Assembly: GCA_035280845.1 (NCBI GenBank)
Contig: DATEFB010000012.1
Location: 9,093-73,092, forward strand
DNA from: Candidatus Saccharimonadales bacterium
GTDB taxonomy: Bacteria; Patescibacteriota; Saccharimonadia; Saccharimonadales; EFPC-124
Length of the DNA stretch: 64,000 bases
Direction of reading: 5' to 3'
Positions within the stretch are counted from its first letter, which is position 1, and each line of letters begins with the position of its first letter. A program made the translations under genes and the position numbers. Below the pieces are notes generated by a model. The model searched no databases. It saw nothing but the letters and a program-made list of their open reading frames with translations, and was not told the origin of the DNA. Shown here in pieces: positions 817 to 22,018 of this stretch.

Positions 817-834
817 AACAGCTATTGTATCAGT

Positions 835-3158: not shown

Positions 3159-3176
3159 AATCTGATATTTTACACC

Positions 3177-3206
3177 AAAAAAGCCACGATCACTCGTGGC
3201 TTTTTT
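3177..3206. terminator. A6-stem-loop-T6 hairpin (GCCACGA tcac TCGTGGC) directly after rplO
   Basis: perfect 7 bp stem flanked by AAAAAA and TTTTTT; on minus strand it lies 15-20 nt after the rplO stop and about 20 nt before the hydrolase ATG. Confidence 0.6.
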
Positions 3207-3223
3207 GGTGGCGGGAGGAATCC

Positions 3224-4314: not shown

Positions 4315-4316
4315 AA

Positions 4317-4673: not shown

Positions 4674-4674
4674 C

Positions 4675-5211: not shown

Positions 5212-5222
5212 TATGTTACTCC

Positions 5223-5624
5223 TTAGTAAACCTTACAAAGCACTTCGCCACCAAGGCGGGCTTTCTTAGCTTGGGTACCGGTCATGACACCTTGGCTGGT
5301 CGAAACCAGTACAATGCCGCGACCGCTCTTAATGCGTGGGATCTCGGTGGCTTTTGCGTATACGCGCTGGCCAGGTTTGCTCACGCGCTGGATTTCTGTG
5401 ATTGTGGCTTTCTCGCCTGGCTCGTTGATTGTAATCACGATTGTGCCACGAGGAGAGCCTTCCACCATTTTGACTGCCGACAAGTAACCAGCTTTTTTAA
5501 GCTGTTCGGCAACGGTCAGTTTGATCTTGCTTGCAGGAACCGTAACTTCTGTTTTGTTAACAGCCATTGCGTTACGGATGCGGGTCAGCAAGTCTGCGAT
5601 TGGGTCTGTAGATTGCATGCTCAT
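5223..5624 (-). CDS. rpsH: 30S ribosomal protein S8
   Basis: 133 aa, MSMQSTDPIADLLTRIRNA... canonical uS8 N-terminus. Confidence 0.93.
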   Translation of the reverse strand: MSMQSTDPIADLLTRIRNAMAVNKTEVTVPASKIKLTVAEQLKKAGYLSAVKMVEGSPRGTIVITINEPGEKATITEIQRVSKPGQRVYAKATEIPRIKSGRGIVLVSTSQGVMTGTQAKKARLGGEVLCKVY

Positions 5625-5634
5625 GATGGTTCTC

Positions 5635-5904
5635 CTACCAGCTGGCCTTTGTTACGCCAGGGACTTCACCTTTGCTGGCTTTTTCGCGGAATGTGATACG
5701 GTCGAGGCCGAAACGGCGCATGTAAGCGCGTGGGCGGCCACCAACCAACGAACGGTTCTTCTGACGGGTTGGGCTACTGTTGCGTGGCAAAAGTGCCAGG
5801 CCTTCGTAGTCGCCTGCTGCCTTGAGTTCGGCGCGCTTAGTGGCAAACTTGGCAATCATGCGAAGCCGTTTTAGGTCACGGGCGATGATAGATTTCTTAG
5901 CCAT
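5635..5904 (-). CDS. rpsN: 30S ribosomal protein S14 (long type)
   Basis: [13 protein letters not shown]... [18 protein letters not shown]; ORF trimmed to ATG at 5902-5904 next to the rplE stop. Confidence 0.9.
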
Positions 5905-5905
5905 C

Positions 5906-6496
5906 TTAGCGGTTCTCCTTCTCAAATGGCATGCCGAATGCGGTCAAAAGAGCGCGGGCATGTGCTGGTTCGTCAGCTTTAATTACAAAGTTCACCTGCA
6001 AACCATGCAGTGTGGTTGTGTCTTCAAAACCAAGTTCTGGGAAGATCGACTGGTCGGTCAGGCCCAGGCTGTAGTTGCCAGCTTTGTCGAAAGCCTTAGC
6101 ACTTACACCGTGGAAGTCGCGCATACGTGGCAGTACGGCCTGTACCAAGCGGTCCAGGAATTCGTACATGCGGGCGTCACGCAATGTAACGCTCACGCCA
6201 ATGCGGTTCATGCCGCGGCGGATTTTAAAGGTTGCAATAGATTTCTTAGCCATGCGGTCAACTGGCTGTTGGCCAGTGATCTTGCGCAGCGTACTTACTA
6301 CAACCTCGTGATAATGCTTGTCATCCTTGTTCTTACCAAGGCCTACGTTCAGCACGATTTTCTCGAGCTTCGGCACCTGGTGAACATTACTAAGACCTAA
6401 GTCTTTCTGGAGACGTGGCACCAGCTCAGTATTGTACAGAGCCTTGAGGCGAGCAGTATCAGCAGTCGCGCGACTTGCTTGCGTCTTCGTTACCAT
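5906..6496 (-). CDS. rplE: 50S ribosomal protein L5
   Basis: 196 aa; uL5 motifs ([22 protein letters not shown]). Confidence 0.92.
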
Positions 6497-6813
6497 TACT
6501 TAATCTCCTTGTTGGCAGCCTGGCGTGCAACACGCACTTTGGCGCCATCTTTCTTTACTTCGTAGCCTACGCGGGTTGTTTTAGCGGCGTCACTTGGGTT
6601 AACCAAGGCAACTTTACTTGCGTCGATCGCTACGTGAATGTCTTTCGTGCCACCCTGAGGGTTAATAGCGTTCGGTTTGACATTGCGCTTGCGCTCGCCA
6701 ATACCTTCAAGCTTTACTGCACCTTTGGCAGGAAGGACACTTAACACTTTTGCAGTCTTACCCTTGTGGGCGCCTGCAATAACTTTCACTACGTCGCCAG
6801 TTTTGATCTTCAT
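6496..6813 (-). CDS. rplX: 50S ribosomal protein L24
   Basis: 105 aa MKIKTGDVVKVIAGAHKGKTAKVL... KOW motif. Confidence 0.92.
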   Translation of the reverse strand: MKIKTGDVVKVIAGAHKGKTAKVLSVLPAKGAVKLEGIGERKRNVKPNAINPQGGTKDIHVAIDASKVALVNPSDAAKTTRVGYEVKKDGAKVRVARQAANKEIK

Positions 6814-6814
6814 A

Positions 6815-7183
6815 CTAGAGTACCTCCGGTGCGAGGCTAATGATCTTCATGTAGCCTTTGTCGCGCAGCTCACGTGGCACTGGGCCGAATACGCGGGTTG
6901 CTTTAGGGTTCTTGTCATCGCCAATAACTACAGCGGCGTTTTCGTCGAACTTAATGGTCGAGCCGTCTTTGCGCTTAATGGTCGCAGTGGTGCGAACAAT
7001 AACCGCCTTAACGACGCTCTTGCGCTTGACTGCGCCAGCTGGGTTAGCGTCCTTAACGCTTGCGACAATGATGTCGCCAACGTGGGCGTAACGGCGGCCA
7101 GTGCCACCAAGCACACGGATACACAGAAGTTCTTTGGCGCCGCTGTTGTCAGCGACCTTGAGGCGTGATTCTTGTTGGATCAT
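6815..7183 (-). CDS. rplN: 50S ribosomal protein L14
   Basis: 122 aa [27 protein letters not shown]... canonical uL14. Confidence 0.95.
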
Positions 7184-7186
7184 GAC

Positions 7187-7456
7187 TTATGCCTCTTCCT
7201 TCAACTCTTCTGCTGCGTGACCGGTTTCAACGATTTTGCTCAGGGTCCAGCTTTTGCGGCGGCTGATCGGGCGGGTTTCGCTGATCTCAACCTTGTCACC
7301 AACGTGAGCTTCGTTCTTCTCGTCGTGTACGGCGTACTTTTTGGTAACGCTGTAGCGCTTGTCATATTTAGGGTGAGTAACGCTGCGGACGGTAGAAACA
7401 GTAATAGTCTTGTCTTGAACGTCGGATGTTACGACGCCAACCATTTTACGTGCCAT
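7187..7456 (-). CDS. rpsQ: 30S ribosomal protein S17
   Basis: 89 aa; ...GVVTSDVQDKTITV...HDE.N.A..GD.V.I.E.RP.S. Confidence 0.92.
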   Translation of the reverse strand: MARKMVGVVTSDVQDKTITVSTVRSVTHPKYDKRYSVTKKYAVHDEKNEAHVGDKVEISETRPISRRKSWTLSKIVETGHAAEELKEEA

Positions 7457-7457
7457 A

Positions 7458-7700
7458 CTATTTGTCCTCTTCTTTCTTCTCGGCGGGCTTGCGTGCGGCT
7501 TCGCCCATAAGTGTCAGCGTCTTGGCAATTTCCCTGCGGGTCTTGCGGATAACGTGAGCGCTTGGAAGCTCTTGTGCTGCGTGCGCGCGGTGCTGTTCGA
7601 CCAATTGTTGCTTTAGTTCAGCTAATTTACTTGTTAATGCTGGTCCGTCAAGTTTGCGGAGCTCTTCGACGACGTTCTGCTTTTGCTTCTTGTCAGCCAT
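7458..7700 (-). CDS. rpmC: 50S ribosomal protein L29
   Basis: 80 aa; position between rplP and rpsQ; coiled basic protein LRKLDGPALTSKLAELKQQL. Confidence 0.85.
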   Translation of the reverse strand: MADKKQKQNVVEELRKLDGPALTSKLAELKQQLVEQHRAHAAQELPSAHVIRKTRREIAKTLTLMGEAARKPAEKKEEDK

Positions 7701-7702
7701 GA

Positions 7703-8116
7703 TTATGCTTCCTCTCGCTTGATGAACTTAGTCTTTACTGGCAGCTTGTGGCTGGCGAGACGCATGGCTTCACGGGCAATTTCTTCGCTCACACCCTTCA
7801 TCTCGAACATTACTGTGCCAGCTTTTACCTTGGCTGCGAAGTAATCTGGTGCGCCTTTGCCACCACCCATCTTTACATCCTGTGGCTTTTTGGTAACTGG
7901 AGTGTGCGGGAAGATGCGGATCCAGATTTTACCACCACGCTTGATGTAACGGGTCATAGCCTGACGGGCAGATTCGATTTGGCGGCTGGTAATGCGCTCG
8001 TTGCCCTGAGACTGAAGCGCAAAGTCGCCGAATGCAATGTAGTGGCCGGCAGTGGCGATACCTACGTTCTTGCCGATGCGTACCTTGCGGAACTTGGTCT
8101 TCTTAGGAAGTAACAT
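7703..8116 (-). CDS. rplP: 50S ribosomal protein L16
   Basis: 137 aa [19 protein letters not shown]... canonical uL16. Confidence 0.95.
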
Positions 8117-8117
8117 C

Positions 8118-8753
8118 TTAGGCTACCTCCCCTTTATAGATCCAGACCTTAATACCAACAGTACCGGCACCAGGAATCTGGCAGGTAGCAAGATGGTAGT
8201 CAATGTCGGCGCGCAGGGTATGCAGAGGTACTGAACCCTGAATTTCTTTTTCGCGGCGTGACATTTCAGCGCCACCAAGGCGGCCAGACACCTCGATGCG
8301 GATGCCTTTGGCACCAGCATTTATGGTGTTTTGTGCACCCATCTTTACAGCACGGCGCCAGTTGATACGGCGCTCGAGCTGGCGACCGATGTTCTCGGCA
8401 ACAAGCTTAGCGGCCAGTTCTGGACGGCGTACTTCTTCGATGTTAAGGCGGACAGGCTTCTGGATGATCTTTTCGATCTCTGCCTTCAGCGCTTGTGCAC
8501 CGGATCCACCGCGGCCAATGACCACACCGGCTTTCGCAGTGTGAACAGTAACAGTCACCAGGTTAGGTGCGCGTTCGATGTCGATTTTCTGGATAGTCGC
8601 GCGGGTAGCGAACATTTTCTCGATGAGACCACGGACCTTCAAGTCCTGGGCCAGCATCTCGGCATATTCGTGCTTACCAGCTGCGAACCATTTGCTGCGC
8701 CAGTCTTTGTTGACCTGAAGGCGCATGCTAATGGGGTTTACTTTTTGACCCAT
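8118..8753 (-). CDS. rpsC: 30S ribosomal protein S3
   Basis: 211 aa [12 protein letters not shown]... KH domain, canonical uS3. Confidence 0.95.
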
Positions 8754-9166
8754 TACTTAGTCTCCTTCTTTGCAGCAGCCGGCTTAGCGGCTGGTTTTTC
8801 GCTTACTTTCTTAGGCTTAATCTCACCACTGACTTCGACCAAAATGTGGCTGGATTTCTTCTGGTATGGCAAGGCACGGCCCATGGCAGCTGGGTTAAAG
8901 CGCTTCAGGCGTGGCCCGGCAGTAACTTGCAGTTGTGTGATTTGCAGGGTGCTTTCAACCAAACCGTGGTTGTTGACGGCGTTGGCCTTGGCGGCAGCGA
9001 TTAACTTGGTAACAGGTTTGGCGGCGCGCTTAGGAGTGAATTCCAGGATAGTCAAGGCGTCAGCTACGCTGCGGCCACGTACCAGACCGGCAACCAGGCC
9101 AATCTTACGTGGGCTTTGGCGTACACCCTTTGCCGATGCTCGGACAATAGTTTGTAATTCAGCCAT
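8753..9166 (-). CDS. rplV: 50S ribosomal protein L22
   Basis: 137 aa; ...ARASAKGVRQSPRKIGLVAGLVRGRSVADALTILEF... uL22 with Lys/Ala-rich tail. Confidence 0.9.
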   Translation of the reverse strand: MAELQTIVRASAKGVRQSPRKIGLVAGLVRGRSVADALTILEFTPKRAAKPVTKLIAAAKANAVNNHGLVESTLQITQLQVTAGPRLKRFNPAAMGRALPYQKKSSHILVEVSGEIKPKKVSEKPAAKPAAAKKETK

Positions 9167-9432
9167 TACTTTTTATCCTTCTTCGCGTGACCGCGGAACT
9201 TACGTGTTGGGCTAAACTCGCCGAGTTTGTGGCCAACCATGTTTTCAGATACGAATACTGGCACGTGGACGCGGCCGTTGTGTACGGCAAACGAACGGCC
9301 AACCATGTCTGGAGTAATGGTGCTGGCGCGTGCCCAGGTTTTAATGACCGTACGGTCATCGTTGCCTAGGGCAGCAACTTTCTTAGCTAGTTTAGGGTCA
9401 ATAAATGGGCCTTTTTTCAGTGAACGACTCAT
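9166..9432 (-). CDS. rpsS: 30S ribosomal protein S19
   Basis: 88 aa [15 protein letters not shown]...[11 protein letters not shown]...[11 protein letters not shown] canonical uS19. Confidence 0.95.
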
Positions 9433-9435
9433 GGC

Positions 9436-10269
9436 TTATTTCCTCTTCGCCTCGTGACGAGAACGCACGATGTACTTAGTTGTATCCTGACGGCGACGTG
9501 TCTTGTAGCCAAGAGCAGGCTTGCCCCAAGGGGTCTTCGGGTTGCGGCCTGGACCGGTCTTACCTTCACCACCACCCATTGGGTGGTCGCTTGGGTTCAT
9601 GGCTTTACCATGAACGCTTGGGCGCCAACCCATGTTACGGCGGCGGCCGGCAGTACCGAGCTTAACATTCTGGTGTTGTTCGTTGCCGACAACGCCCAGG
9701 GTCGCCATGCACTCAACGCGCACTTTACGGACTTCACCTGATGGCAAACGGACCTGAGCGTAGTCGCCTTCTTTGGCGACGAGCTGAGCCTTAGTGCCGG
9801 CTGAGCGGACAATCTGACCGCCCTTACCAGGTTGAAGTTCGATGTTGTACACGAAAGTACCGGTTGGAATTGCAGAAAGGGGCATGCGGTTGCCGGTCTC
9901 GACAGGAGCCTCGACACCACTTTGGATTTGCTGGCCAACCTGCATGTCACCACTTGCAATAACATAGTGGTACAGGTTGTTCTGGTCTTTAACGCGGGCA
10001 ATACGGGCCGAACGGTTCGGGTCGTATTCGATTGCCTCGATGGTCGCAACAGTACCAGGTGCCAGACGGTGGTTCACCAGACGGTAGAACCGCTTTGCGC
10101 CACCACCACGGTGACGGGTGGTAATGCGGCCCATGTTGTTACGGCCGGAATTTTGCTTGCGGACTTTAAGCAGACTCTTTACACCGCGCTTGGCGGTGAC
10201 CATCTGCAAGTCCTGCGTCGTCATGTTACGACGGCCGTTACTTGTAGGTTTATATGCTTTAATAGCCAT
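9436..10269 (-). CDS. rplB: 50S ribosomal protein L2
   Basis: 277 aa MAIKAYKPTSNGRR... canonical uL2 with conserved His-containing C-terminal region. Confidence 0.95.
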   Translation of the reverse strand: MAIKAYKPTSNGRRNMTTQDLQMVTAKRGVKSLLKVRKQNSGRNNMGRITTRHRGGGAKRFYRLVNHRLAPGTVATIEAIEYDPNRSARIARVKDQNNLYHYVIASGDMQVGQQIQSGVEAPVETGNRMPLSAIPTGTFVYNIELQPGKGGQIVRSAGTKAQLVAKEGDYAQVRLPSGEVRKVRVECMATLGVVGNEQHQNVKLGTAGRRRNMGWRPSVHGKAMNPSDHPMGGGEGKTGPGRNPKTPWGKPALGYKTRRRQDTTKYIVRSRHEAKRK

Positions 10270-10579: not shown

Positions 10580-11194
10580 TTATGCTCCCAACCATGACTC
10601 AATGGCAGCAACAGCTGGTTTGGTCATCATTAGTTTGTCTGCATTCAGGATAGTAAACACATTGAGGTATGTAGCCTGGACCAACTGGACGTTCTGCAAG
10701 TTGTTAGTGCTGCGGGTCAGTTCAGGAGTCTTGGTGTCCACAACGATAACGATGCGTTTGCCTTCGATCTTCTGAGTCTCGAGCCACTTAACCATGTCCG
10801 CGGTCTTGCCACTGGCTTTGATGTCATCAATAACGACGACTTCTTTAGCCTGGTTGGCAAGCGTCAATGCCTGGCGCAGCGCAACGCGCTTAGCCTTGAG
10901 TGGCATTTGCTTAGAGTAGTTCTCTTCGCCGGTAGGACCAAAAGCGATACCACCTTTGCGCCAGATTGGGTTGCGTGAGCTACCAAAACGGGCACGGCCG
11001 GTACCTTTTTGCTTCCAAGGCTTCTTACCACCACCGCTTACTTCGCCGCGCTTAAGAGTGCGGGCGTAGTTGCCGCGACCGTTAGCCAGGTAGGCCTCGT
11101 AGGCCAGCTTAAGTAGCTGGTGGTTAGGGATTGCAACGTCGAACACGCTTGTTGGCAATGCCGAAGTTGCAGCTTTTGTAGTAGTTGTAGCCAT
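10580..11194 (-). CDS. rplD: 50S ribosomal protein L4
   Basis: 204 aa; uL4 pattern (GGGKKPWKQKGTGRAR). Confidence 0.93.
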   Translation of the reverse strand: MATTTTKAATSALPTSVFDVAIPNHQLLKLAYEAYLANGRGNYARTLKRGEVSGGGKKPWKQKGTGRARFGSSRNPIWRKGGIAFGPTGEENYSKQMPLKAKRVALRQALTLANQAKEVVVIDDIKASGKTADMVKWLETQKIEGKRIVIVVDTKTPELTRSTNNLQNVQLVQATYLNVFTILNADKLMMTKPAVAAIESWLGA

Positions 11195-11808
11195 TAGTTG
11201 CTACCTCCGATCATTACCAAGCCGCGGCGTGGACCAGGCACAGCACCTTTGAGGCCGATAAGACCGCGTTCGACATCTACTAAAGCGACTGCCAAATTCT
11301 TGACAGTCACCTGTTCGGCGCCCATGCGGCCAGCCATGCGCTTACCTTTAAACACTTTTTGCGGGTACATCGAACCAATTGAACCTGGACGACGGCTATA
11401 GTGGCCGGCGCCGTGGCTGCGTGGCCCGGCGTTAAAGTTGTGCCGCTTGATGTTGCCGGCAAAACCCTTACCCTTGCTTGTGCCAGTAACGCTGACGTGG
11501 TCGCCCACTTCAAACATTGTGACATCTAATGTTGTGCCAACTGCCATGTCTTCGCTCAGCTCTTCAACACGCACCTCGCGGAGGTGCTTTGGTGTTGCTT
11601 TGCTGGCTGCAACGTGGCCTTTGGTGGCATTGCTCAGGTTCTTACCCTCTCCAAACCCAATTTGCACTGCGCTGTAGCCGTCGGATTCGACAGACTTCAC
11701 CTGAGTGACAGTGCAAGGGCCAGCTTGGATAAGTGTTACAGGAATAGTAACACCATCCTCCTGGAGGAGCTGGGTCATACCTAATTTGGTACCTAGTAGC
11801 GCTTTCAT
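11194..11808 (-). CDS. rplC: 50S ribosomal protein L3
   Basis: 204 aa MKALLGTKLGMTQLL... canonical uL3. Confidence 0.95.
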   Translation of the reverse strand: MKALLGTKLGMTQLLQEDGVTIPVTLIQAGPCTVTQVKSVESDGYSAVQIGFGEGKNLSNATKGHVAASKATPKHLREVRVEELSEDMAVGTTLDVTMFEVGDHVSVTGTSKGKGFAGNIKRHNFNAGPRSHGAGHYSRRPGSIGSMYPQKVFKGKRMAGRMGAEQVTVKNLAVALVDVERGLIGLKGAVPGPRRGLVMIGGSN

Positions 11809-11929
11809 AGTGCTCCCAATTGCATGAAAAAACTTGGTATTCTGCGGTTTCCCTGATTAGCCGAGTGGCTGGGACCTGCAAACGTACCAAGATTTTTCGT
11901 TTAAATCTTGATAGAAAGTTACGCTTGGT

Positions 11930-11958
11930 ATTGTACCAGAGGCGGCTATCTGCGTCAA
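11930..11958 (-). promoter_or_regulatory. sigma70-type promoter for rplC operon: -35 TTGACG, 17 bp, -10 TACAAT; ~115 nt leader
   Basis: plus-strand attgta 11930-11935 and cgtcaa 11953-11958 with 17 bp spacer. Confidence 0.6.
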
Positions 11959-12008
11959 CACCTTACATAGACAAATTTTATAGATGCCGGAATTTGTGTT
12001 GTAGTACG

Positions 12009-12797
12009 CTACTTTAGGCTTGCGCTGAGTTCAGCAAAATCGCGGGCGATCGCCTGGTCATGGGTGACCGCAAGCGCACGCACCGTCTCGCTCAGCGATC
12101 GGAGGGTGGTTACGTGGGCTTCTACTTCTTTTTGTTTTGCTGCAAACCCTGGAATATCTTTTTTCGTGAACAAATCCGGCAATGTGGCGAGTGTTACTTG
12201 AGTAGCCTCTACAGCAGCAATGACTTGTTGGTGAACGGAGGTGACTTCCTGACTTGGCAGCGATACTTCTTTTAGCTTCGTCGCCATAACAGCCCAAGCG
12301 TCGGCAAGTGCTTTTTGCTGCGCGGCATTTGGTCCGGTAACGGTAGTCGCTGATTGCAATATGGCAGACACTTGCTGCTGGTATGCCATGAATGCGCGGG
12401 CGGCACCAGCTGTCTTTTTAAGTTCGATAAGGCGATCGATGTGATCGGCTCGCACTTGGGAATCTGCGGCAGAGGTAAGGGTGACGCCGAACAGCTGCGG
12501 TAGTACGGGCGCCTTGCCGACCTGCGCATCGATGAGCGTTTGCAACTTCGCCAAGGTTTCAATGCTTTTTGCGGTATCGGCCTGCTGGGCTAACGCCTTA
12601 AACTCATCACCAAGCGTCTTTAGCTCACTCCTGGACTGCGTGATGTACGCAGCCTTCTGCTCATTATATTTAGTGGTCGCCTCCGCGGCGTTATACCACC
12701 AGCCACCGGCACAGGCAACACCAACAAACAGTGCAATGCCAAGGGCTATAAACAGGGGTTTTCGTGAGCGACGGCCAACTGTTTTGAGTTGCATCAT
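12009..12797 (-). CDS. hypothetical membrane-anchored protein (single N-terminal TM, long helical ectodomain)
   Basis: 262 aa; KPLFIALGIALFVGVACAGGWW hydrophobic segment then Ala/Gln-rich helical repeats; 4 nt overlap with upstream protease gene. Confidence 0.6.
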   Translation of the reverse strand: MMQLKTVGRRSRKPLFIALGIALFVGVACAGGWWYNAAEATTKYNEQKAAYITQSRSELKTLGDEFKALAQQADTAKSIETLAKLQTLIDAQVGKAPVLPQLFGVTLTSAADSQVRADHIDRLIELKKTAGAARAFMAYQQQVSAILQSATTVTGPNAAQQKALADAWAVMATKLKEVSLPSQEVTSVHQQVIAAVEATQVTLATLPDLFTKKDIPGFAAKQKEVEAHVTTLRSLSETVRALAVTHDQAIARDFAELSASLK

Positions 12798-13525
12798 ATG
12801 CCAAGTGTACTCGAGGTTATTTCTTTATCTAATGGCCACGGGTTAAACTTGCAGCCACCTAAACTGATTGATTGCTGTTGCATAACAGCTGCCGCCTGGC
12901 CAGCGCCACTGCACGAACCATGGTCATGGCCTAACCAGTGACCAGTCTCGTGGTTCACGACCATATGTCGGTAATTACGCAAATCGCCGCCCGCGTCGTT
13001 CCATGGCTGCGTTGCACCCATCCAGCGGTCCTGGTTAATAATGACATACCGTCCAACGCGGCAGCTATACTGTGCGTCGCATGGCGATCCGAATGTCGGG
13101 ACTTGGTCGGCAGCCGAGAGCACCAGAGTAAACTGGCCACCACTCGCCACCTCTTTAAAGACGACTCCCAGTCGTGACCACCCTTTTTCGTCGGCATAAG
13201 TAGCCGCTGCTTGCGATTTAAATGTAGCCAGGTCGGCAGTTATGGCGCCGCGTGTCGCTACGTCGTAGGTTACCGTGCGTGTGGCCGGCTTGCGTACCGT
13301 AATAGTAGGAATGACAATTGGCGATTGGGGCGGTGTGACATTGGGCGTTGGATAGTTCTTAAGAATACCGCTTAGTTCGTTTGCGGAGCTCACCGGACAG
13401 TACAGGCTCGCCTCGTTACATTCCAGCGGTGCCGGTTTGGTACCTTCTTCTGCCAAAACAGTTGGTGTAGCAAGCACCAGGGCGACTCCAATAACGGCAA
13501 GTAGAGGCAACAGTATCCGGCGCAT
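12794..13525 (-). CDS. secreted zincin-like metallopeptidase (HExxH..H; resembles actinobacterial DUF3152-type)
   Basis: 243 aa; signal peptide MRRILLPLLAVIGVALVLATPTVLA; motif VVNHETGHWLGHDHGSC. Confidence 0.6.
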   Translation of the reverse strand: MRRILLPLLAVIGVALVLATPTVLAEEGTKPAPLECNEASLYCPVSSANELSGILKNYPTPNVTPPQSPIVIPTITVRKPATRTVTYDVATRGAITADLATFKSQAAATYADEKGWSRLGVVFKEVASGGQFTLVLSAADQVPTFGSPCDAQYSCRVGRYVIINQDRWMGATQPWNDAGGDLRNYRHMVVNHETGHWLGHDHGSCSGAGQAAAVMQQQSISLGGCKFNPWPLDKEITSSTLGI

Positions 13526-13797
13526 TACACCACTATTCCGGCGGGGATGTAGAACGTTATGATGGTTATAATTATAAGCAGGGCATATTCGATCTTGCGG
13601 TCAATCTGAAAATGGTCATGAGTCGCGAACAGTAGCCCGATCATGAGGCCAAGCGGCAAGCCGTACACAGTAAAATCGCCCAGCTGGATAGGCTGTGGGA
13701 ACTTAACCCAAAATGATGCCAGCACAATATATAAGACTATCTTCAAAAAATAGGTGCTGTCTCGTTCGGTCGCTTGTTTCTGTTTGGTTTTTGCCAT
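13525..13797 (-). CDS. small hypothetical membrane protein (2-3 TM)
   Basis: 90 aa, first gene of a three-gene minus-strand operon with the protease. Confidence 0.5.
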   Translation of the reverse strand: MAKTKQKQATERDSTYFLKIVLYIVLASFWVKFPQPIQLGDFTVYGLPLGLMIGLLFATHDHFQIDRKIEYALLIIITIITFYIPAGIVV

Positions 13798-13851
13798 AGT
13801 ACTTTTGTTATTTTACCCTACCACCGTGGGGGAGGCAAACACACATCATGG

Positions 13852-13863
13852 GCAAAATTTTGC
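13852..13863. repeat. perfect 12 bp palindrome GCAAAATTTTGC overlapping the -35 of the plus-strand promoter
   Basis: self-complementary sequence in the divergent intergenic region 13798-13926. Confidence 0.7.
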
Positions 13864-13889
13864 AAGGCAAAAAATTATCAGTATATAAT
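13860..13889 (+). promoter_or_regulatory. consensus sigma70 promoter: -35 TTGCAA, 17 bp, -10 TATAAT
   Basis: ttgcaa 13860-13865, tataat 13884-13889; followed by GGAGG (13916-13920) and ATG at 13927. Confidence 0.65.
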
Positions 13890-13926
13890 GAAGCACTCTC
13901 TTACAAGAGATGGCAGGAGGCCCCAG

Positions 13927-14340
13927 ATGGTCATGGCGGAGGTGTACAGCATGACCAAGGTCGCGGCTTGGGACGAGCTTGTCCGAAGCGACCTGGTGAT
14001 CCATGGCGGTAACCTTCAAATCAAGACGACGTATGCCTACGTGCGTCGCAGCGAATTCGGCGGCATCAGGCCACCCGCAATCCATGCGGGCGTGCGTGTG
14101 CTGGCGGGCCCTGCGCCCTATGAAGCGGCACAAGGCATTCGTAAAGGCATGCGCCCTGGCGAACAGGTAGTACTGGTACGGTTCAGAGCCGTCAAACGCG
14201 GCTGGACTCTCCCCGTACTGCAAAGTGCTTTCTCGCTCGGCTTGGTGCCAGACGAGGAGCGCGATCCTCTACGACTTTCGTGTGTATGCATCCCCCACTA
14301 CCGACTTGGCATGCTTTTGTATGAGCGGCTCGCCGCCTGA
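13927..14340 (+). CDS. hypothetical protein (138 aa), high GC
   Basis: in-frame part of ORF 13774..14340 starting at ATG 13927 with SD GGAGG 6 nt upstream and a consensus promoter; convergent with sigma factor gene. Confidence 0.5.
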   Translation: MVMAEVYSMTKVAAWDELVRSDLVIHGGNLQIKTTYAYVRRSEFGGIRPPAIHAGVRVLAGPAPYEAAQGIRKGMRPGEQVVLVRFRAVKRGWTLPVLQSAFSLGLVPDEERDPLRLSCVCIPHYRLGMLLYERLAA

Positions 14341-14436
14341 AGAGCATGAGCGTGTGCGGACCTGGCGGGCCGGTGCACGCGCGGGGCCTTCTGCCCCGCA
14401 ACCAGAGTCCGTGCTGCTTGCGGCCCCTGGTTGCGG

Positions 14437-16632
14437 TTACCGCTTATTAAGTCTGGCCGATATTGTTCCAGAGAAATCACCAGCCGGACTGCTACTTAAC
14501 GCAGTTCCCGAAATGATAAAGCTGCCGCCGGTTGCCTCGTGTGCCACATGCTCTCCAGCGTCTTCCAGCACTTGGACGTCAATGTCTTTGCGCGCCTGGT
14601 AGCCGCAATAATCACCAACCGCGCCATACACATGCAACGAAGCCTGGTTGCGAGCCTGTGCTGCCGCATAATGACCGGCGTCGCCCATGACTTCCAAGCG
14701 CGCCATCTTGTTTGCCTTTGCTGCGGCATAGTTACCAACCGAACCGTTTACCTTCACAAGAGCCAATCCACCGATCTTGTACCCTGCATAATCGCCAAGG
14801 TTGCCATGGATCACCAGCTCACCGTGCTCCAACCCGGCACCCATATAGCCCAATTTGCCTTGGAGGCTTTCGGGGATTGTCAGTTCGACAAAGGTGTTGT
14901 CGTTCATGCGCTCGGCCAGCAGCCTTGAGAAAAGTTGGCCAACGCGGTCGAGGCTTATGTCGCCCATCCGCTCCTGCAAGTGCGTCACGAAATTCTCTAC
15001 CTCTGCATTCCAGAAGCCGGCAATATGGCGTACCGTCAGTGCCTCGCCCATCTGGGACTGCAAGGCTTCGACAAGCACCTTGGGGTATTCGGAAGCATGT
15101 CCAGCCTCGACGAATGACTGCTGGAAGCTGTATGCACCGGTTGTATAGAGGATATCTTTAAAACGAGCGGCGGTGGCCTCATATTCAATCAAAACCTGTT
15201 CGGGAGTTATACGGACGGGCTCATCCCAGGCCTCACCCGGATATGCCTGCCAACGGGCACGCGGCTCAGCGAGGCCACTGGCTGGCGGCTCATAACCGAG
15301 CGGCGCATCCCTGCCCAAGCGAATGGCTCTCGCACCTAATACGCGCTCAGTTTTTAGTACGGGAAAAGTCCTGGTGTGTACAGGCGCTTCGACCGATACG
15401 TCCAGGTTAAGGAATGGCTCGAGGTTACGGCTACGTGCGGGGTGCCGCAGCTTATCGAGCGTCTTTGTAAGGATCTGACGGACACGCTCCCGCGTTATGC
15501 CATATACCATTCCAACTTCATCGAGCGTGCGCTCAACGCCATCGGTAAGACCGAAGCGAAGGCGGATTACACCAGCTTCACGCTCGCTTAATGTCCCCAG
15601 GGCTTCAGCAATAACATCAACGCGCATGCGCTCCATAACAATATCCTCAATCGAAGCCGTATCTGTATCGGCGACAACTTCTTCCAAAGCGAGCGCGCTT
15701 ACCTCACCATCCACCTCGATCTCTTCGTCGGCAGCACCAAAACTTACCAGATGATCAATAAAAATCGGATCACGGTATTTGTCCCACTCCTGGAAATTAG
15801 CCAGCTCCTCAGGGGTGCGACCAGCGTCGTTGTCGGGATCGTACATGGCCGACTGCATTTCTTCGACGCGGTTTATAGGAATATACAGGCCTGGCTTCTC
15901 GTACGCCTTAACATGCTTGGCCAGTGCGCCACGCAGGCCATTTATAGCATATGAACGGAACCGCACCGGCTTACCGATGTTGTCGCCCCGCGTATGGACC
16001 ATGCCGGGTTTAAAATTGCGCACAGCCTTAACAATTGCTTCGTTTACCACCTGTACGCGCTCGTCGTAGTCGGCATAGGGCGAGCGAAGACGCGTCATAT
16101 CACCAGGCGCCCATGAGTAGTCCGATCCCTGGATGTGCATTTTGGTCGAGCGCGGTTGCTTGCGTGGCTTAACACCAGCATCGTCGGTTTCATCGGGAAC
16201 CCGGCCCATGCCCGGCCGTATGTTCATAGACAGTCGGGCAAGGTACGTGGCGTTACGCAAATTACATTCGATGAGGACACGTTCGGCTTCGCGGCCGGCG
16301 TCGAATCGGGCACGAAGTGCGTCAAGCTGCTGAAGGTCACGCTTGAGCGGTCGCTTTGCCACTTCGACCTTCTTCTCAAGTTCTTCAAGAAGTGCCGCTG
16401 CCGCCAGCCCATCCTGAATAACAGCAGCGAGCTCGTGCTCCTGTTCAGCAGTCAGATACGTTGTACGGCTGCCCGTATGTTCGGCAAGCCTGTCGCCCAT
16501 GACTTGTAGGTAGTGTTCGCTGGGTGATCCTTTCTCGTAAAGAGTCCACTTAACTGCCGTCTCGTCGGCTTCGTCGGAAGCGGTGCGCATTATAGGATCC
16601 CAGGGATCAAAGTCCTGTGTTTCGTACGACAT
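14437..16632 (-). CDS. RNA polymerase sigma factor, sigma-70 family (RpoD-like) with ~325 aa C-terminal extension containing GXGXG-type beta-helix repeats
   Basis: 731 aa; region 1.2/2.1 (LTAEQEHELAAVIQDG, LIECNLRNATYLARL), region 2.3-2.4 (FRSYAINGLRGAL), region 4.2 (LSEREAGVIRLRFGLTDGVERTLDEVGMVYGITRERVRQILTKTLDKLRHP) ending near aa 405; then ~20-residue repeats GNLGDYAGYKIGG / GSVGNYAAAKANKM / GDAGHYAAAQARNQ / GAVGDYCGYQARKD. Confidence 0.8.
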   Translation of the reverse strand: MSYETQDFDPWDPIMRTASDEADETAVKWTLYEKGSPSEHYLQVMGDRLAEHTGSRTTYLTAEQEHELAAVIQDGLAAAALLEELEKKVEVAKRPLKRDLQQLDALRARFDAGREAERVLIECNLRNATYLARLSMNIRPGMGRVPDETDDAGVKPRKQPRSTKMHIQGSDYSWAPGDMTRLRSPYADYDERVQVVNEAIVKAVRNFKPGMVHTRGDNIGKPVRFRSYAINGLRGALAKHVKAYEKPGLYIPINRVEEMQSAMYDPDNDAGRTPEELANFQEWDKYRDPIFIDHLVSFGAADEEIEVDGEVSALALEEVVADTDTASIEDIVMERMRVDVIAEALGTLSEREAGVIRLRFGLTDGVERTLDEVGMVYGITRERVRQILTKTLDKLRHPARSRNLEPFLNLDVSVEAPVHTRTFPVLKTERVLGARAIRLGRDAPLGYEPPASGLAEPRARWQAYPGEAWDEPVRITPEQVLIEYEATAARFKDILYTTGAYSFQQSFVEAGHASEYPKVLVEALQSQMGEALTVRHIAGFWNAEVENFVTHLQERMGDISLDRVGQLFSRLLAERMNDNTFVELTIPESLQGKLGYMGAGLEHGELVIHGNLGDYAGYKIGGLALVKVNGSVGNYAAAKANKMARLEVMGDAGHYAAAQARNQASLHVYGAVGDYCGYQARKDIDVQVLEDAGEHVAHEATGGSFIISGTALSSSPAGDFSGTISARLNKR
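14503..14850 (-). repeat. intragenic ~60 nt periodic DNA repeats encoding the GXGXG beta-helix units of the sigma factor tail
   Basis: recurring gc.gc.g.ataat.acc...cc elements (gtagccgcaataatcacc / gctgccgcataatgacc / gctgcggcatagttacc / accctgcataatcgcc). Confidence 0.5.
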
Positions 16633-16664
16633 GTAGATTCATATTTTATCACATATAGTTGCAT

Positions 16665-16700
16665 ACAAAACAAAAGAGATGCGTAAACATCTCTTTTGTT
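16665..16700 (-). terminator. rho-independent terminator after rpsJ (stem CAAAAGAGATG / CATCTCTTTTG, T-run on minus strand)
   Basis: 11 bp stem, 6 nt loop at 16671-16698 with AAAA upstream on plus strand. Confidence 0.65.
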
Positions 16701-16719
16701 GGAACACTTGGCTCTGCTG

Positions 16720-17043
16720 CTACATGCGGATTTCTGCGTCGCAACCAGCTGGCAGGCTGAGGTTTTGCAGAGAATCAATAGTCTTAGGAGTTGGGTTGGT
16801 GATGTCGATGAGGCGTTTGTGGACGCGCATCTCGAAGTGCTCACCACCTTTTTTGTATACGTGCGGGCTCTTTACCACAGTGTATGTGCTGCGGCGAGTC
16901 GGCAGGGGCACTGGACCGGCGATTGTTGCGCCAGTACGAAGGGCTGTGTCGATAATTTGTTTTGCAGACTGGTCGATGACCTTGTGGTCATAGGCCTTCA
17001 GGCGGATACGGATCCGCTGTTTTTGCTCGGTTGGCGTTGCCAT
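16720..17043 (-). CDS. rpsJ: 30S ribosomal protein S10
   Basis: 107 aa; [72 protein letters not shown] canonical uS10. Confidence 0.95.
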
Positions 17044-17143
17044 GAGTAAAACTCCTCTTGTTGTGCGCCGTAACCTCTGCTCGATTCATGGCCTTGCAGG
17101 CTCATGTCTGGCCGAGTTCTCGGTGCGATTTATGTATAAACAA

Positions 17144-17172
17144 ACTATAGCATATGTTCTTTAGATAGGCAA
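17144..17172 (-). promoter_or_regulatory. sigma70-type promoter for rpsJ: -35 TTGCCT, 17 bp, -10 TATAGT; SD AGGAG 8 nt before ATG
   Basis: plus-strand actata 17144-17149 and aggcaa 17167-17172. Confidence 0.6.
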
Positions 17173-17232: not shown

Positions 17233-17517
17233 TCAGCCCACGTCGTAGTCCCCTCTAGAGGCGCTAGCCGTGAAGCACGCCCATCCCGCAGCTGTGAACA
17301 CAATGCCGCCCGAATCAGCTTGCTTGCGCACCACAGCACCGCCATCGGGCAGGTCGGCCACCAGAATGGCCTCACCGCCAGACTCCGGGCTTGTCGTGTT
17401 GGTCCAGGTGAGTGACGCGAGGTCAATGTCGGGCGCTTCCGCCAAGTCGGCGTAGATGTGCAGACCCCTGTCCTGTTCCATGGCTCTCCATCCAACGTGC
17501 ACGGCGGTGTGCCGCAT
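17233..17517 (-). CDS. questionable small ORF (94 aa) in a ~65% GC patch between tuf terminator and rpsJ promoter; possibly gene remnant
   Basis: ORF only; no convincing SD; compositional outlier. Confidence 0.2.
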   Translation of the reverse strand: MRHTAVHVGWRAMEQDRGLHIYADLAEAPDIDLASLTWTNTTSPESGGEAILVADLPDGGAVVRKQADSGGIVFTAAGWACFTASASRGDYDVG

Positions 17518-17561
17518 ATTCGTTATAGTACATTTTGAGCCGGTCTACAATTCCCAGCCAC

Positions 17562-17592
17562 AAAAAAGAACCGCATTGCTGCGGTTCTTTTT
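17562..17592 (-). terminator. rho-independent terminator after tuf (AGAACCGCA ttgc TGCGGTTCT, A5/T4 flanks, bidirectional shape)
   Basis: perfect 9 bp stem 18 nt downstream of tuf stop. Confidence 0.7.
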
Positions 17593-17609
17593 ATGCTTGG
17601 TGGCTAAGA

Positions 17610-18797
<1,188 letters not shown>

Positions 18798-18909: not shown

Positions 18910-19548
18910 CTAGTTTTTGGCAGCAAGGCGCAGAGTGCGGCTAAGAGTGTGCCGCTGGTCATTCCGAATAAAGCTGCGACTCTCGAGCGCACGCAGCACA
19001 AAACGGCCGCGCGCCAGACGCGCAGGCTTATCGCTGCCCATTTCGGCACGGTCGACATCGAGGGCAATATAGGGTGCGGCGGCCTCGCCCATCATATAGT
19101 AGCTACTGCGGACAAGTGCTTTGTCAGAAACCTCCTCGCGGCGGTTCTCCAGGAACGAATTGACGCGGTTTAGCAAGTACTCCTTCTGAGGGTCGCTCAA
19201 GGCCGAATGCTCGCTGGCCACAACAAAAGCCGTCACATCACATGCCAGCTGCATTTTACGCATAAGAATAAAATCATTGTCGTTTTCGTACGCCTGGCCG
19301 TCGTCGTCGAACTCGGCCGGACCACCAGCGTCTACCAGGATGCCGTCAACGTCGTATTCGTGGCGCTCTGCCCAGACATCGAGGTATTTCTGGCGATTGA
19401 AGGTGGGGCTTGTGGCGTTGTCGAGGATACCTGCAACGGTCATGCGAATGCTGCTTTGCGTGGCCGCGCTGTTGCGAAGCATCCTGAAAAAATCGTCGAG
19501 TGAGCGTTCGTACGGAGTCTTCTCTGGTGATTGCGCAGTCTCGGCCAT
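18910..19548 (-). CDS. hypothetical protein (212 aa) inserted between fusA and tuf
   Basis: ORF, translationally coupled to upstream 101 aa ORF (2 nt gap); no recognisable domain. Confidence 0.5.
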   Translation of the reverse strand: MAETAQSPEKTPYERSLDDFFRMLRNSAATQSSIRMTVAGILDNATSPTFNRQKYLDVWAERHEYDVDGILVDAGGPAEFDDDGQAYENDNDFILMRKMQLACDVTAFVVASEHSALSDPQKEYLLNRVNSFLENRREEVSDKALVRSSYYMMGEAAAPYIALDVDRAEMGSDKPARLARGRFVLRALESRSFIRNDQRHTLSRTLRLAAKN

Positions 19549-19549: not shown

Positions 19550-19855
19550 CTAGTTCATGTCACGGGCAGCGAACATCAGGGCGGCTCGGGAAACGTTTTC
19601 CTGGCGGCGCATAGCCACCATCAGTTCTTCTACCGCGAAGCCGTCTACGGTGTCGTTAATGGTGTCAGGCACCTGGTGGTGTTCAGGGGTAGGACGCAGG
19701 CCGGTCTGAGGCTCGGTGTCGAATGCCACCAAGGCCAGAGGGCCAAGTGTACTCAGAGCCGTCAGCTCGGCACCTTCACGGTCAGTCAAAAAGGGCGATG
19801 GTCCGCCTTCGTACTGTTCTTCGTGTGGCCGGTGTTGGAGCGCAAGCTCTGTCAT
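19550..19855 (-). CDS. hypothetical protein (101 aa)
   Basis: ORF immediately after fusA terminator; possible TTGCCA/TATTTT or TTGACA promoter elements upstream. Confidence 0.4.
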   Translation of the reverse strand: MTELALQHRPHEEQYEGGPSPFLTDREGAELTALSTLGPLALVAFDTEPQTGLRPTPEHHQVPDTINDTVDGFAVEELMVAMRRQENVSRAALMFAARDMN

Positions 19856-19936: not shown

Positions 19937-22018
19937 TTACGCTGCTTTTTTGGCAATAATGCCTTCGGCAACGTTGTTTGGCACTTCTTCGTATTGTGCC
20001 AGCTCCATGCTGGAGCTTGCGCGGCCCTGGGTGGCGCTGCGCAGTTCGGTCGTGTAACCAAACATCTCACCAAGTGGGACTATAGCGGTGATTTCTTTCA
20101 CGCCGCCAGATAAGTCTTCCATTGATTCAATGCGGCCACGCTTAGAGTTCAGGCCACCAATGACATCGCCCATGAAGTCTTCAGGAGTCACAACTACGAC
20201 TTTCATAACAGGCTCAAGCAGCACTGGGCTTGCTTTCTTCACACCTTCGCGGGCAGCGAGGGCACCAGCCATCTTGAAGGCCATTTCGTTGGAGTCAACT
20301 TCGTGGTAGCTACCGTCGTACAGGGTCGCCTTTACGTCGATCACTGGGAAGCCGGCAATAACACCGCCCTTCAGCGTTTCTTCAATACCGTTTTTAACAG
20401 GGGTCCGGTATTCGTTTGGAACAACACCGCCCTTAATTTCGTCGACAAATTCAAAGCCCTTGCCAGGTTCGTTTGGCTCAAGCTTAACGTAGACATGACC
20501 GTACTGGCCACGGCCACCGGACTGCTTGATGTACTTGCCTTCGCTCTCGATCGTCTTCTTGATCGCTTCGCGGTAGGCAACCTGTGGCTGGCCGATGTTG
20601 GCTTCAACCTTGAATTCGCGCTTCATGCGGTCAACGATAATCTCCAGGTGGAGCTCGCCCATACCACTAATAATGGTCTGGCCGGTTTCTTCGTCGGTGT
20701 GCACGCGGAAGGTTGGGTCTTCTTCGGCAAGACGCTGCAGGGCAATTGCCATCTTCTCTTGGTCGGCCTTGGTCTTAGGCTCGATTGCGATACTGACTGG
20801 AGGTTCTGGGAAGTCAATGCTTTCAAGGATGATTGGGCTTGTGGGGTCGCTCAGGGTCGTACCTGTAGTAGTGCCCTTTAGGCCCACGATGGCAGCGATG
20901 TCACCAGCACCAATTTCGGTGATATCTTCGCGCTTGTCGGCGTGCATACGCAGCAGACGGCCGACGCGTTCCTTGTCGCCAGTAGTAGCGTTCAGGATGT
21001 AGCTACCAGCGGTCAGCTTACCGCTGTAGACACGAACGAAGATCAGCTTACCGACAAATGGGTCAGTTGCAACCTTGAATGCCAAGGCAGCCATTGGCTG
21101 GTCGTCGGCAGGTTTGCGCTCAACCTGGTCGCCGCTCTTAGGGTGGATGCCCCAAATGGCAGGGATGTCAGTTGGGCTTGGCAGGTAGTCAACAACGAGG
21201 TCGAGGACTTTTTCTACAATCACACCGCGGCCATCGCCACCGGTCACAATGTAGAACTCACCAGTCAGGACTGATTTGCGGATTGCAGCTTTCAGTTCGT
21301 CTTCGGTGATCGACTCTTCGCCGCTCTCGAGGTATTTCTCAAACAGTGCGTCGTCGGCTTCGACAGCAGCTTCAACCAGCAAGGTGCGGGCGTTCTTGGC
21401 TTTTTCGAGCATGTCGGCAGGCACTTCGCCTTCAACCAGTTCGTGGTCGGCAAATTCCTTGTAGGTGTAGGCCTTCATGCTTACCAAGTCAACGACACCG
21501 TTGATCTCTTGCTCGAAACCGATCGGCAAGTGAATAGGCAGCGCGCGGCGGCTCAGGCGGTTGTGGATTGATTCCAAAGACTTGTAGAAGTCACCGCCGG
21601 TTGAGTTGATCTTGTTAATAAAACAAATGCGAGGCGTACCGTACTTGTTGGCCTGGCGCCATACGGTTTCGGTCTGGGCCTCTACGCCCATCTTGCCGTC
21701 GAACACCACAACGGCGCCGTCGAGTACGCGCAAAGAGCGCTCCACTTCAGCGGTGAAGTCAATGTGGCCCGGGGTGTCGATAATGTTGATCTTGTGTTCT
21801 TTCCAGAAACACGTCACAGCGGCGCTGGTAATGGTGATACCGCGCTCGCGCTCTTGCTCCATCCAGTCAGTGGTGGTTTCACCTTCGTGGACGGCGCCAA
21901 TCTTGTGGCTCAGACCTGTGCGGTACAGAATACCTTCGGTCGTGGTGGTTTTACCGGCGTCAATGTGCGCGATAATACCAATGTTGCGAAACTTCGCGAG
22001 TGGAATGGATGCTGCCAT
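19937..22018 (-). CDS. fusA: elongation factor G
   Basis: 693 aa; [24 protein letters not shown] motifs and full five-domain EF-G length. Confidence 0.97.

Follow-up and report, generated by a model that had tools for sequence, protein, structure and literature searches.

How did the gene for ribosomal protein S10 (rpsJ) come to lie apart from that for L3 (rplC) in a genome of Candidatus Saccharimonadales (Saccharibacteria/TM7, Patescibacteria, candidate phyla radiation (CPR))? In the classical S10 operon, rpsJ stands directly before rplC and is co-transcribed with it. The stretch analysed here (the window, 64,000 nucleotides (nt) of a 74-kilobase metagenome-assembled contig) has a different order. 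Both genes are on the minus strand, and a gap of 4,911 nt with five genes lies between them: sigL, encoding a sigma-like protein, orf137, tm90, a DUF3152 gene and orf262. An earlier interpretation made without database searches, here called the sequence-only reading, located the genes, the repeat behind rpsJ and the promoter before rplC correctly, about 4.9 kilobases (kb) apart, and explained the distance as an insertion that severed rpsJ from rplC. Comparison with relatives leads us to another explanation. The S10 operon is probably (roughly 80%) built as two autonomous modules that flank a permissive slot, and the five genes would be the filling of that slot in the window.

Separation of rpsJ and rplC in the sampled Saccharimonadia

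The window proteins were mapped onto species-representative loci, taken as the best 80 of 499 L3 matches (L3 identity 68–81%). All 80 loci belong to Saccharimonadia, some bin labels notwithstanding, and 'class-wide' below refers to this sampled part of the class. Seventy-two loci hold both S10 and L3, and S10 is apart from L3 in 72 of 72, with a gap of 223–8,961 nt (median 1.5 kb). In the minimal form (L037), the 223-nt gap consists of a terminator, a promoter and a leader, and the slot is empty. The flanks are fixed: the terminator ends 36–102 nt past the S10 stop codon, and the −35 element of the rplC promoter lies 127–190 nt before the L3 ATG. The slot between them measures 35–8,758 nt, and about 4,705 nt in the window.

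In the window, the rpsJ terminator is a perfect 13-nt inverted repeat (16669–16681/16688–16700) with a 6-nt loop, followed by a T-rich stretch, approximately 50 nt past the stop codon. The consensus terminator scanner missed it; inverted-repeat analysis and direct reading showed the repeat. A hairpin with a T-run (≤ −9 kcal/mol, within 120 nt of the S10 stop) is present in 66 of 71 loci, against 5 of 71 shuffled sequences and 0–3 in coding-sequence controls. On the other side of the slot, about 74 of 79 loci have TTGAC-17/18-TGnTAnnnT before L3 at a shared position of the alignment, combined with a covarying leader. Meanwhile, the rpsJ promoter of the window aligns with TTG.CA...TG.TATAAT, a promoter conserved ahead of S10 across about 70 loci of Saccharimonadia. 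The region upstream of rpsJ in TM7x, used as a strong promoter, drove expression of the hph resistance gene in Saccharibacteria (PMC10633639).

These features agree with the transcriptional part of the sequence-only reading. With its own promoter and terminator, rpsJ would be uncoupled from rplC in transcription, and rplC has a separate consensus promoter and a leader, which is structured and about 120 nt long.

Two rearranged loci reveal that the two units behave independently. In L076, rpsJ is inverted relative to rplC together with its own leader (9361–9770). In L014, the rplC leader is kept, and no S10, tuf or fusA lies within 10 kb upstream (1–10000). The rpsJ and rplC units are thus autonomous modules. 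Even loci with an empty slot show the split, with terminator, promoter and leader in place, so the inserted genes did not cause it. They occupy a pre-existing boundary, and the split is ancestral and class-wide. A severing by insertion does not agree with a split found in every locus that has both genes and with a gap as short as that of L037. The sequence-only reading had added that the same order in related genomes would lower the novelty of the locus; the architecture is lineage-wide, and the novelty is lowered accordingly.

Leader RNAs upstream of rplC and rpsJ

The rplC leader extends for about 120 nt from the promoter to the ATG, with the consensus GGUAACUUAUUACG.AAUAAC..UUCUUGGUGAAUUGGUAAGUCC[variable hairpin]GGAaACUGCC.GCCACCAAGAAUUUUAAGUGGGAG. 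It contains a 5′ hairpin, a long P1/P2 hairpin (approximately 11898–11833), a U-tract (11832–11827) and the Shine-Dalgarno sequence GGGAG (11817–11813). In alignment A1 (73 sequences), the 9 base pairs (bp) of P1 are 92.5% paired and the 8 bp of P2 are 93.3% paired. The alignment holds 136 double-sided changes; shuffles give 43.5 ± 9.6 and slid controls no more than 40. For both leaders, all of the 500 shuffles and slid partners were exceeded, and these statistics ignore phylogeny. Directly 3′ of P1, four invariant U residues are followed by GGGAG; the window reads UACCAAG-UUUUUU. The fold of the window leader has an energy of −31.7 kcal/mol (z = −2.97).

The covariance model R1 gives 81 matches in the 1.5 Mb searched, all directly upstream of rplC, and loci omitted from the seed (L012, L024, L027, L053) are also matched. 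The window copy scores 59 bits, and no second R1 match was found anywhere in the window. The weakest part of the leader model is the counted 5′ hairpin TTATT/AATAA, which is only 69–84% paired; an alternative 5′ hairpin, GTAA/TTAC, was considered and left uncounted. In its layout, the rplC leader looks like an attenuator. In L033, two tandem R1 matches (9707–9817, 9882–10003) lie upstream of rplC, where a run of N is also present, and these may be a duplication or a data artefact.

The rpsJ leader, of about 100 nt, differs from the rplC leader. Its invariant cores GAGAACUC and AGAGGUUAC are enclosed by a covarying helix. In alignment A2 (66 sequences), 13 pairs are 95.4% paired, with 179 double-sided changes, where shuffles give 45.5 and slid controls 45 or fewer. 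The model R2 gives 72 matches, exactly one per S10-containing locus and always just upstream of rpsJ (72 bits in the window), and it matches the inverted rpsJ of L076 too. From its conservation and position, the rpsJ leader could be an S10-specific regulatory RNA.

Possible roles of the leaders

Both leaders have two of the properties expected of ribosomal-protein leaders, a conserved element in the 5′ untranslated region (UTR) and compensatory changes in its structure. In Escherichia coli, L4 acts on a leader hairpin and U-run, which leads to NusA-dependent termination and a translation block (PMC3616713). L4 is therefore the obvious candidate for the rplC leader, and with a tract of only U4, a terminator that needs a factor fits better than a constitutive one. 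With rpsJ outside the L4 circuit, its own leader would provide S10 with separate control. We put the odds at about even that each leader acts in ribosomal-protein feedback. The 'L4-regulated unit' of the sequence-only reading is only an analogy, although the attenuator-like hairpin leader is there.

On the other hand, the leaders may not be feedback sensors, a view that we consider clearly less probable than even. They may instead serve RNase processing or stability, respond to a general factor (NusA/NusG, a small RNA or a signal linked to guanosine tetraphosphate) or act as small-molecule riboswitches. Neither leader matches a family in Rfam 15; scans of both regions at E ≤ 10 gave chance matches only, and at the gathering threshold the whole 64 kb gave one tRNA only. 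Similarity to E. coli rRNA is not above that of shuffles. S10 is not known to be an autoregulator in model bacteria. Against such other roles stand the internal loops, which are conserved and flanked by covarying helices within the 5′ UTR of a ribosomal-protein unit, and the occurrence of each leader only upstream of its own gene, in one copy per locus. A hairpin with a U-tract beside the Shine-Dalgarno sequence is moreover a hallmark of known leaders, including the L4 attenuator (PMC3616713).

The sigma-like protein sigL and its family

Residues 1–410 of sigL are sigma-70-like. A modelled β-helix occupies residues 477–731 with a helical linker in between, and the C-terminal extension amounts to 330 amino acids (aa). 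Pfam reports Sigma70_r4 only (60 bits versus a cutoff of 24.1 bits). TIGR02937 reaches 52.1 bits (cutoff 42.9 bits), and the NCBIfam models of RpoD/SigA/SigB stay far below their cutoffs (e.g. 124 versus 711 bits). With Foldseek, the sigL model matches mycobacterial SigA chains (E ~1e-13, ~380 columns). Regions 1.2, 2.1, 2.2–2.4, a weak 3, and 4 are seen in the alignment of the family and in the fold, with an insertion between regions 2.1 and 2.2. By its fold and the helix-turn-helix of region 4.2, sigL is a member of the sigma-70 superfamily.

A canonical four-domain sigma factor, P0016, exists in the order and comes from a different assembly; searching the window with P0016 found sigL as the sole match. 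Region 4.2 of sigL is intact and near-identical to that of P0016. In region 2.3, YAINGLRG takes the place of YATWWVRQ of P0016. In sigma-70 factors, such a change in region 2.3 together with an intact region 4.2 predicts normal −35 and flap contacts and an altered or lost −10 recognition and melting.

The full-length fold search was dominated by the sigma half, and the C-terminal domain was modelled separately. The model (predicted local distance difference test score 89) consists of a helical subdomain and a right-handed β-helix with G-x-x-G-D-(Y/F)-x-G repeats. It matches FhcC, GltS and FwdC (6s6y_C, 1ea0_A, 5t61_C) with a probability of 0.98–1.0 and template modelling scores of 0.35–0.46. 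The Pfam GXGXG family (PF01493) gives a sub-threshold match (E = 0.0025, 17.8 bits versus 32.5 bits). The predicted C-terminus of sigL therefore resembles a GXGXG domain by fold, with a sequence match below the gathering score. A search of the C-terminal sequence against the PDB returned nothing meaningful (NirF, E = 1.3). Among the anti-phage defence models of PADLOC, only the region 4 part of sigL (residues 312–408) matches MzaA, the sigma-like protein of MZA, and no neighbouring gene matches any model.

A genome scan with sigL found no relative, and its family was reached through protein searches and one metagenome locus. The metagenome search gave 80 loci of its own, distinct from the 80 L3 loci; these were mostly ordinary sigma factors matched over residues 193–409 alone, and such loci were set aside. 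An exhaustive search with the C-terminal domain found 75 cluster representatives at E ≤ 1e-10, most of 630–860 aa with the domain at the C-terminus. Sigma70_r4 is present in 48 of 50 tested members, and Pfam region 2 in 6 of 50. The number of clusters and the frequency of Sigma70_r4 show a real, unnamed family of sigma-70–GXGXG fusions, and no paper in the literature library searched describes a sigma factor with a fused GXGXG domain; four papers there contain both terms and are unrelated to such a fusion.

Genomic contexts were recovered for 11 members of the family, 7 of them at boundaries of ribosomal or transcription operons. The gene follows rpsJ in the window, L169 and L012 (3654–6784), lies between nusG and rplK in L088 (5875–7917), L170 (1730–3778) and L172 (973–3042), and is directly upstream of rplJ in L001 (10001–12586). 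The other four contexts are beside the ATP synthase operon, beside an FAD oxidase and at two further places. These contexts, in a count that ignores shared ancestry, are suggestive of a link between the family and the boundaries of translation-gene operons.

Could sigL then be a primary or growth-coupled sigma factor, placed in the ribosomal cluster for co-expression or promoter control? The share of 7 in 11 contexts speaks for this, and the near-canonical region 4.2 should read the TTGAC −35 elements of the rpsJ and rplC promoters. Yet the 7 contexts amount to three distinct junctions only, and the remaining four are unrelated to ribosomal genes. The melting motif of region 2.3 is lost in sigL, and the scarcity of Pfam region 2 among family members points the same way. 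Meanwhile, the order has a canonical four-domain sigma, and the closer relatives L173 and L008 lack sigL at rpsJ. We regard such a role as unlikely. The 'major sigma factor' of the sequence-only reading has to be given up on these grounds, together with the Pfam result and the 330-aa extension.

Slot contents and order of arrival

The commonest resident of the slot is a homologue of tm90, which lies on the same strand in the S10–L3 gap of 44 of 72 loci. The second commonest is a VanY D-Ala-D-Ala carboxypeptidase on the opposite strand (21 loci, e.g. L075, 6528–7430, minus strand). Others are PGA_cap (5 loci), DUF3152 (5), type IV pilin-like proteins (3), YtxH and YkuD/L,D-transpeptidase. The residents are predominantly of cell-envelope function.

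In the window, the DUF3152 start codon overlaps the tm90 stop codon and the orf262 start codon overlaps the DUF3152 stop codon. These overlaps and the promoter-like site at 13838..13810 indicate that tm90, DUF3152 and orf262 form one operon, in agreement with the sequence-only reading. The TAAAAT upstream of tm90 also occurs in L008. tm90 has 299 homologue clusters, all 'hypothetical'; they lack a Pfam domain, and those with a named source come from Saccharimonadales. The DUF3152 protein matches PF11350 with 69.8 bits (cutoff 25.1 bits) over residues 86–223. A signal peptide and HETGHWLGH (HExxH) can be read from its sequence, and its protease activity is putative. DUF3152 is found in the same slot in L008, L013, L017, L063, L066, L169 and L173. 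For orf262, profile searches gave no family above threshold, and its homologues follow DUF3152 in L008, L169 and L173. No terminator was found between orf262 and the rplC promoter, so read-through into the rplC leader would be possible.

The opposite-strand orf137 has an AGGAGG Shine-Dalgarno sequence and a promoter-like TTGCAA-18-TATAAT at 13860–13889. It has three cluster homologues only among 5.8 billion proteins and no family match in the profile libraries. A homologue lies next to tm90 in the same position and orientation in L169 (66% identity) and L173 (48%). We conclude that orf137 is a real and very narrowly distributed gene. The hairpin at 14396–14436, between sigL and orf137, has 16-nt arms that are 88% complementary, and L173 has a comparable one 3′ of its orf137 homologue.

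Comparing three relatives gives the order of arrival. In L173, which of the relatives with the full region stands closest (L3 93%, S10 94%), the order is S10-orf137-tm90-DUF3152-orf262-L3, with orf137 on the opposite strand and without sigL. The slot of L008 holds tm90-DUF3152-orf262 only. L169 has the full arrangement of the window, and its tm90, DUF3152 and sigL are 89%, 85% and 64% identical to those of the window. Since L173 and L008 lack sigL and keep tm90-DUF3152-orf262, sigL is the most recent addition. Its place is precisely the stretch from the rpsJ terminator to the hairpin 3′ of orf137. Its candidate extended −10, TGATAAAAT, lies 10 nt before the ATG, with no −35 match and no Shine-Dalgarno sequence, which would give a near-leaderless mRNA. 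A mobile element as carrier of sigL and orf137 was considered and rejected: there are no flanking repeats around 13700–16800, no integrase or transposase and no nearby tRNA.

In L012, a distant member of the sigL family (33–36% identical) stands at the same site, and a DDE transposase (DDE_Tnp_1_3, 4744–5574, minus strand) divides it into open reading frames (ORFs) at 3654–4853 and 5615–6784. This copy may have arrived separately, or it may reflect an older presence of the gene that was lost several times.

The younger part of the slot is what speaks for a recent insertion, in which a 4.9-kb island or horizontally transferred segment cut an intact rpsJ-rplC operon and a new promoter rescued rplC. 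sigL is missing in L173, L008, L009, L010 and L011, and sigL and orf137 have a G+C content of 0.55–0.58 versus approximately 0.52. Nevertheless, we judge this event very improbable. About 70 species, loci with an empty slot included, share the split together with the terminator and the promoter and leader of rplC, and tm90, DUF3152 and orf262 are common to several relatives. The region contains neither an integrase or transposase nor flanking direct or inverted repeats or a tRNA.

A chimeric contig or binning artefact that joined unrelated pieces between rpsJ and rplC, conceivable for a metagenome-assembled genome, can be dismissed: the rpsJ-sigL-orf137 stretch is identical in an independent second assembly (L007), the order sigL-orf137-tm90-DUF3152-orf262 is repeated in L169, a diverged contig (64–89% identical) from another run, and this recurrence argues against misassembly, as do rpsJ, rplC and the same slot genes minus sigL in L173.

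A model of two modules and a permissive slot

In the proposed model, the first module would be a monocistronic rpsJ with a sigma-70-type promoter, its own leader and an intrinsic terminator. The second would be rplC-rplD-rplW-rplB-... with a TTGAC/extended −10 promoter, the P1/P2 leader, UUUU and a ribosome-binding site. The slot between the rpsJ terminator and the rplC promoter may take up nothing or as much as about 9 kb, mostly envelope genes. In the window, it would hold an older, translationally coupled tm90-DUF3152-orf262 operon, a divergently transcribed orf137 and the later-lodged sigL, which may be transcribed from the near-leaderless extended −10 just past the rpsJ terminator. Transcription of the tm90 operon could run into the rplC leader. 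We speculate that this leader senses a protein of its own operon, L4, which would act by termination or translation block as in E. coli, and that the rpsJ leader possibly senses S10 itself. sigL would be an accessory or regulatory sigma factor, controlled in cis by its C-terminal domain.

Several points weigh against the two-module model or its parts. Its class-wide scope is that of the sampled loci. Promoter-like sites number 7 between 10.5 and 20.5 kb, and 6.7 are expected from shuffles. A single consensus match therefore proves little, and comparison with relatives is needed. The rplC and rpsJ promoters are backed by a conserved position in about 70 species; the promoters of sigL, orf137 and tm90 are each a single-sequence match. 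The U-tract after P1 has 4 U in most species and 6 in the window and is weak as a stand-alone terminator. In a crude search for rRNA mimicry by local alignment with E. coli 16S/23S rRNA, the rRNA of another lineage, the leader cores are within the shuffled range, which says little either way about mimicry. As for sigL, its distant copy in L012 leaves some probability for an older presence that was lost repeatedly.

A more far-reaching and tentative proposal, to which we give rather low odds, is that Saccharimonadia have re-partitioned the control of S10 into a sensor leader before rpsJ, an L4-like attenuator before rplC and a landing slot for envelope genes and sigma–GXGXG proteins. If true, S10-specific feedback would be seen here for the first time, and sigma–GXGXG proteins may couple ribosome synthesis in ultrasmall epibionts to an alternative transcription programme. 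The new pieces are the two candidate leader RNAs and the sigma–GXGXG family.

Comparison with known systems

The rplC unit resembles the S10 operon of E. coli in having a structured leader before the rplC-rplD genes, a last hairpin with a U-run before the first ribosome-binding site, a layout suited to controlling termination as well as translation, and L4 (rplD) encoded within the regulated unit. In E. coli, however, the leader precedes rpsJ, which is co-transcribed with rplC. In Saccharimonadia, rpsJ is separately terminated and has its own leader, the attenuator-like leader stands before rplC, and no relation to the E. coli leader appears in Rfam or in sequence. The L4-responsive leader RNA of E. 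coli is restricted to Gammaproteobacteria, and most known ribosomal-protein leaders are confined to narrow lineages (PMC3616713).

S10 is uncoupled from L3 in other lineages as well. The str cluster of cyanobacteria and plastids has rps10 behind tufA. In Archaea, uS10 is as a rule encoded apart from the uL3-uL4-uL23 cluster (PMC10833476). As in these systems, S10 remains beside the elongation-factor gene here. In contrast to them, nearly every genome of this bacterial (CPR) lineage keeps S10 just ahead of L3 and in the same orientation, and a terminator/promoter pair and a variable slot are all that separates the two. Multigene insertions between the concatenated str, S10, spc and alpha operons are described for Gammaproteobacteria (PMC6735719). 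Those insertions likewise place accessory genes at operon boundaries and leave operons unbroken; they lie between classical operons, whereas the boundary here is inside rpsJ|rplC. Saccharimonadia have further variable gaps at fusA|tuf and tuf|rpsJ. Distinctive here are a boundary inside a bacterial S10 operon with the neighbourhood kept, a conserved leader pair and a class-wide slot. Our literature search found nothing on an S10/L3 split in Saccharibacteria or other CPR bacteria, or on ribosomal leaders in CPR.

Like mycobacterial SigA/SigB, sigL has a sigma fold and a canonical region 4.2. It differs from them in the replaced recognition and melting residues of regions 2.3/2.4 and in the added helical and GXGXG extension. 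The extracytoplasmic function (ECF) sigma factors ECF41 and ECF42 carry fused C-terminal regulatory domains. The large extension of sigL could likewise regulate in cis, although sigL is not an ECF sigma factor. With the GXGXG domains of glutamate synthase alpha, FwdC and FhcC, the sigL domain shares the predicted right-handed β-helix; unlike them, it is fused to a sigma factor and lacks partner enzyme subunits in its neighbourhood.

Operons of ribosomal proteins, with their feedback RNAs, are textbook cases of conserved gene order, and a large, mostly uncultured class partitions the S10 cluster differently. Saccharibacteria have a few cultivated members that are now genetically tractable (PMC10633639). 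Genetic work on them can use the conserved promoters and terminators as practical parts, and the two covarying leader candidates, absent from Rfam, offer handles on the balance of ribosome synthesis in epibionts with reduced genomes. The variable slot helps to explain accessory envelope genes in the 'ribosomal' synteny blocks used for CPR phylogenomics and binning. The sigma–GXGXG family represents an unstudied class of putative transcription regulators.

Gene order in the window

The minus-strand order is rpoC, a 178-aa ORF, rpsL, rpsG, a 127-aa ORF, fusA (19937–22018), orf101, orf177, tuf (17610–18797), orf82, rpsJ, sigL, orf137 (plus strand), tm90, DUF3152, orf262 and rplC. The tuf-rpsJ order is kept, and a strong terminator lies 3′ of tuf at 17561–17594. 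rplC is followed by rplD, rplW, rplB, rpsS and further genes, tightly packed with abutting or overlapping ORFs according to the contig gene list and Pfam families. The features from the rpsJ promoter to rplC are collected in the table.

Table. Positions of features between the rpsJ promoter and rplC in the window
Feature	Positions	Strand	Basis
rpsJ promoter TTGCCT-17-TATAGT, TG-extended	17144..17172	-	promoter scan; aligns with conserved promoter
rpsJ 5′ leader RNA	17044..17143	-	alignment A2, model R2; covarying helix closes core
rpsJ (S10), 107 aa	16720..17043	-	Pfam Ribosomal_S10 E=3e-33; relatives 80–96% identical
Intrinsic terminator 3′ of rpsJ	16659..16700	-	inverted repeat and T-run
Candidate extended −10 TGATAAAAT of sigL	16643..16651	-	read from sequence
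sigL, sigma-70-like, helical linker and GXGXG-type β-helix, 731 aa	14437..16632	-	
GC-rich hairpin between convergent sigL/orf137, candidate shared terminator	14396..14436	.	inverted repeat
orf137, 137 aa, conserved ORFan	13860..14340 (coding sequence 13927-14340)	+	
Promoter-like site of the tm90 operon, TTGCCT-17-TAAAAT	13810..13838	-	promoter scan
tm90, 90 aa, membrane protein with ~3 transmembrane segments	13525..13797	-	
DUF3152 HExxH metalloprotease-like secreted protein, 243 aa	12794..13525	-	
orf262, 262 aa, helical, N-terminal membrane anchor	12009..12797	-	
rplC promoter TTGACG-17-(TG)TACAAT	11930..11958	-	promoter scan and conservation
rplC leader RNA	11809..11929	-	alignment A1, model R1
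rplC (L3), first gene of rplC-rplD-rplW-rplB-rpsS-...	11194..11808	-	Pfam Ribosomal_L3

Upstream in the cluster, rpoC is preceded by a 1132-aa ORF, presumably rpoB. Directly upstream of this ORF lie clpP (Pfam CLP_protease) and the trigger factor gene (32056–34117, minus strand). In most bacteria rplJ-rplL stand before rpoB, but in the window they are absent from that place.

Small minus-strand ORFs without a family match sit between tuf and rpsJ (17233–17481), between fusA and tuf (18910–19443, 19550–19855) and between rpsG and fusA (22020–22403). Among the relatives, the spacing is 116–3,391 nt for fusA–tuf and 171–4,816 nt for tuf–rpsJ, and the whole str/S10 region has the appearance of separately spaced units with variable fillers.

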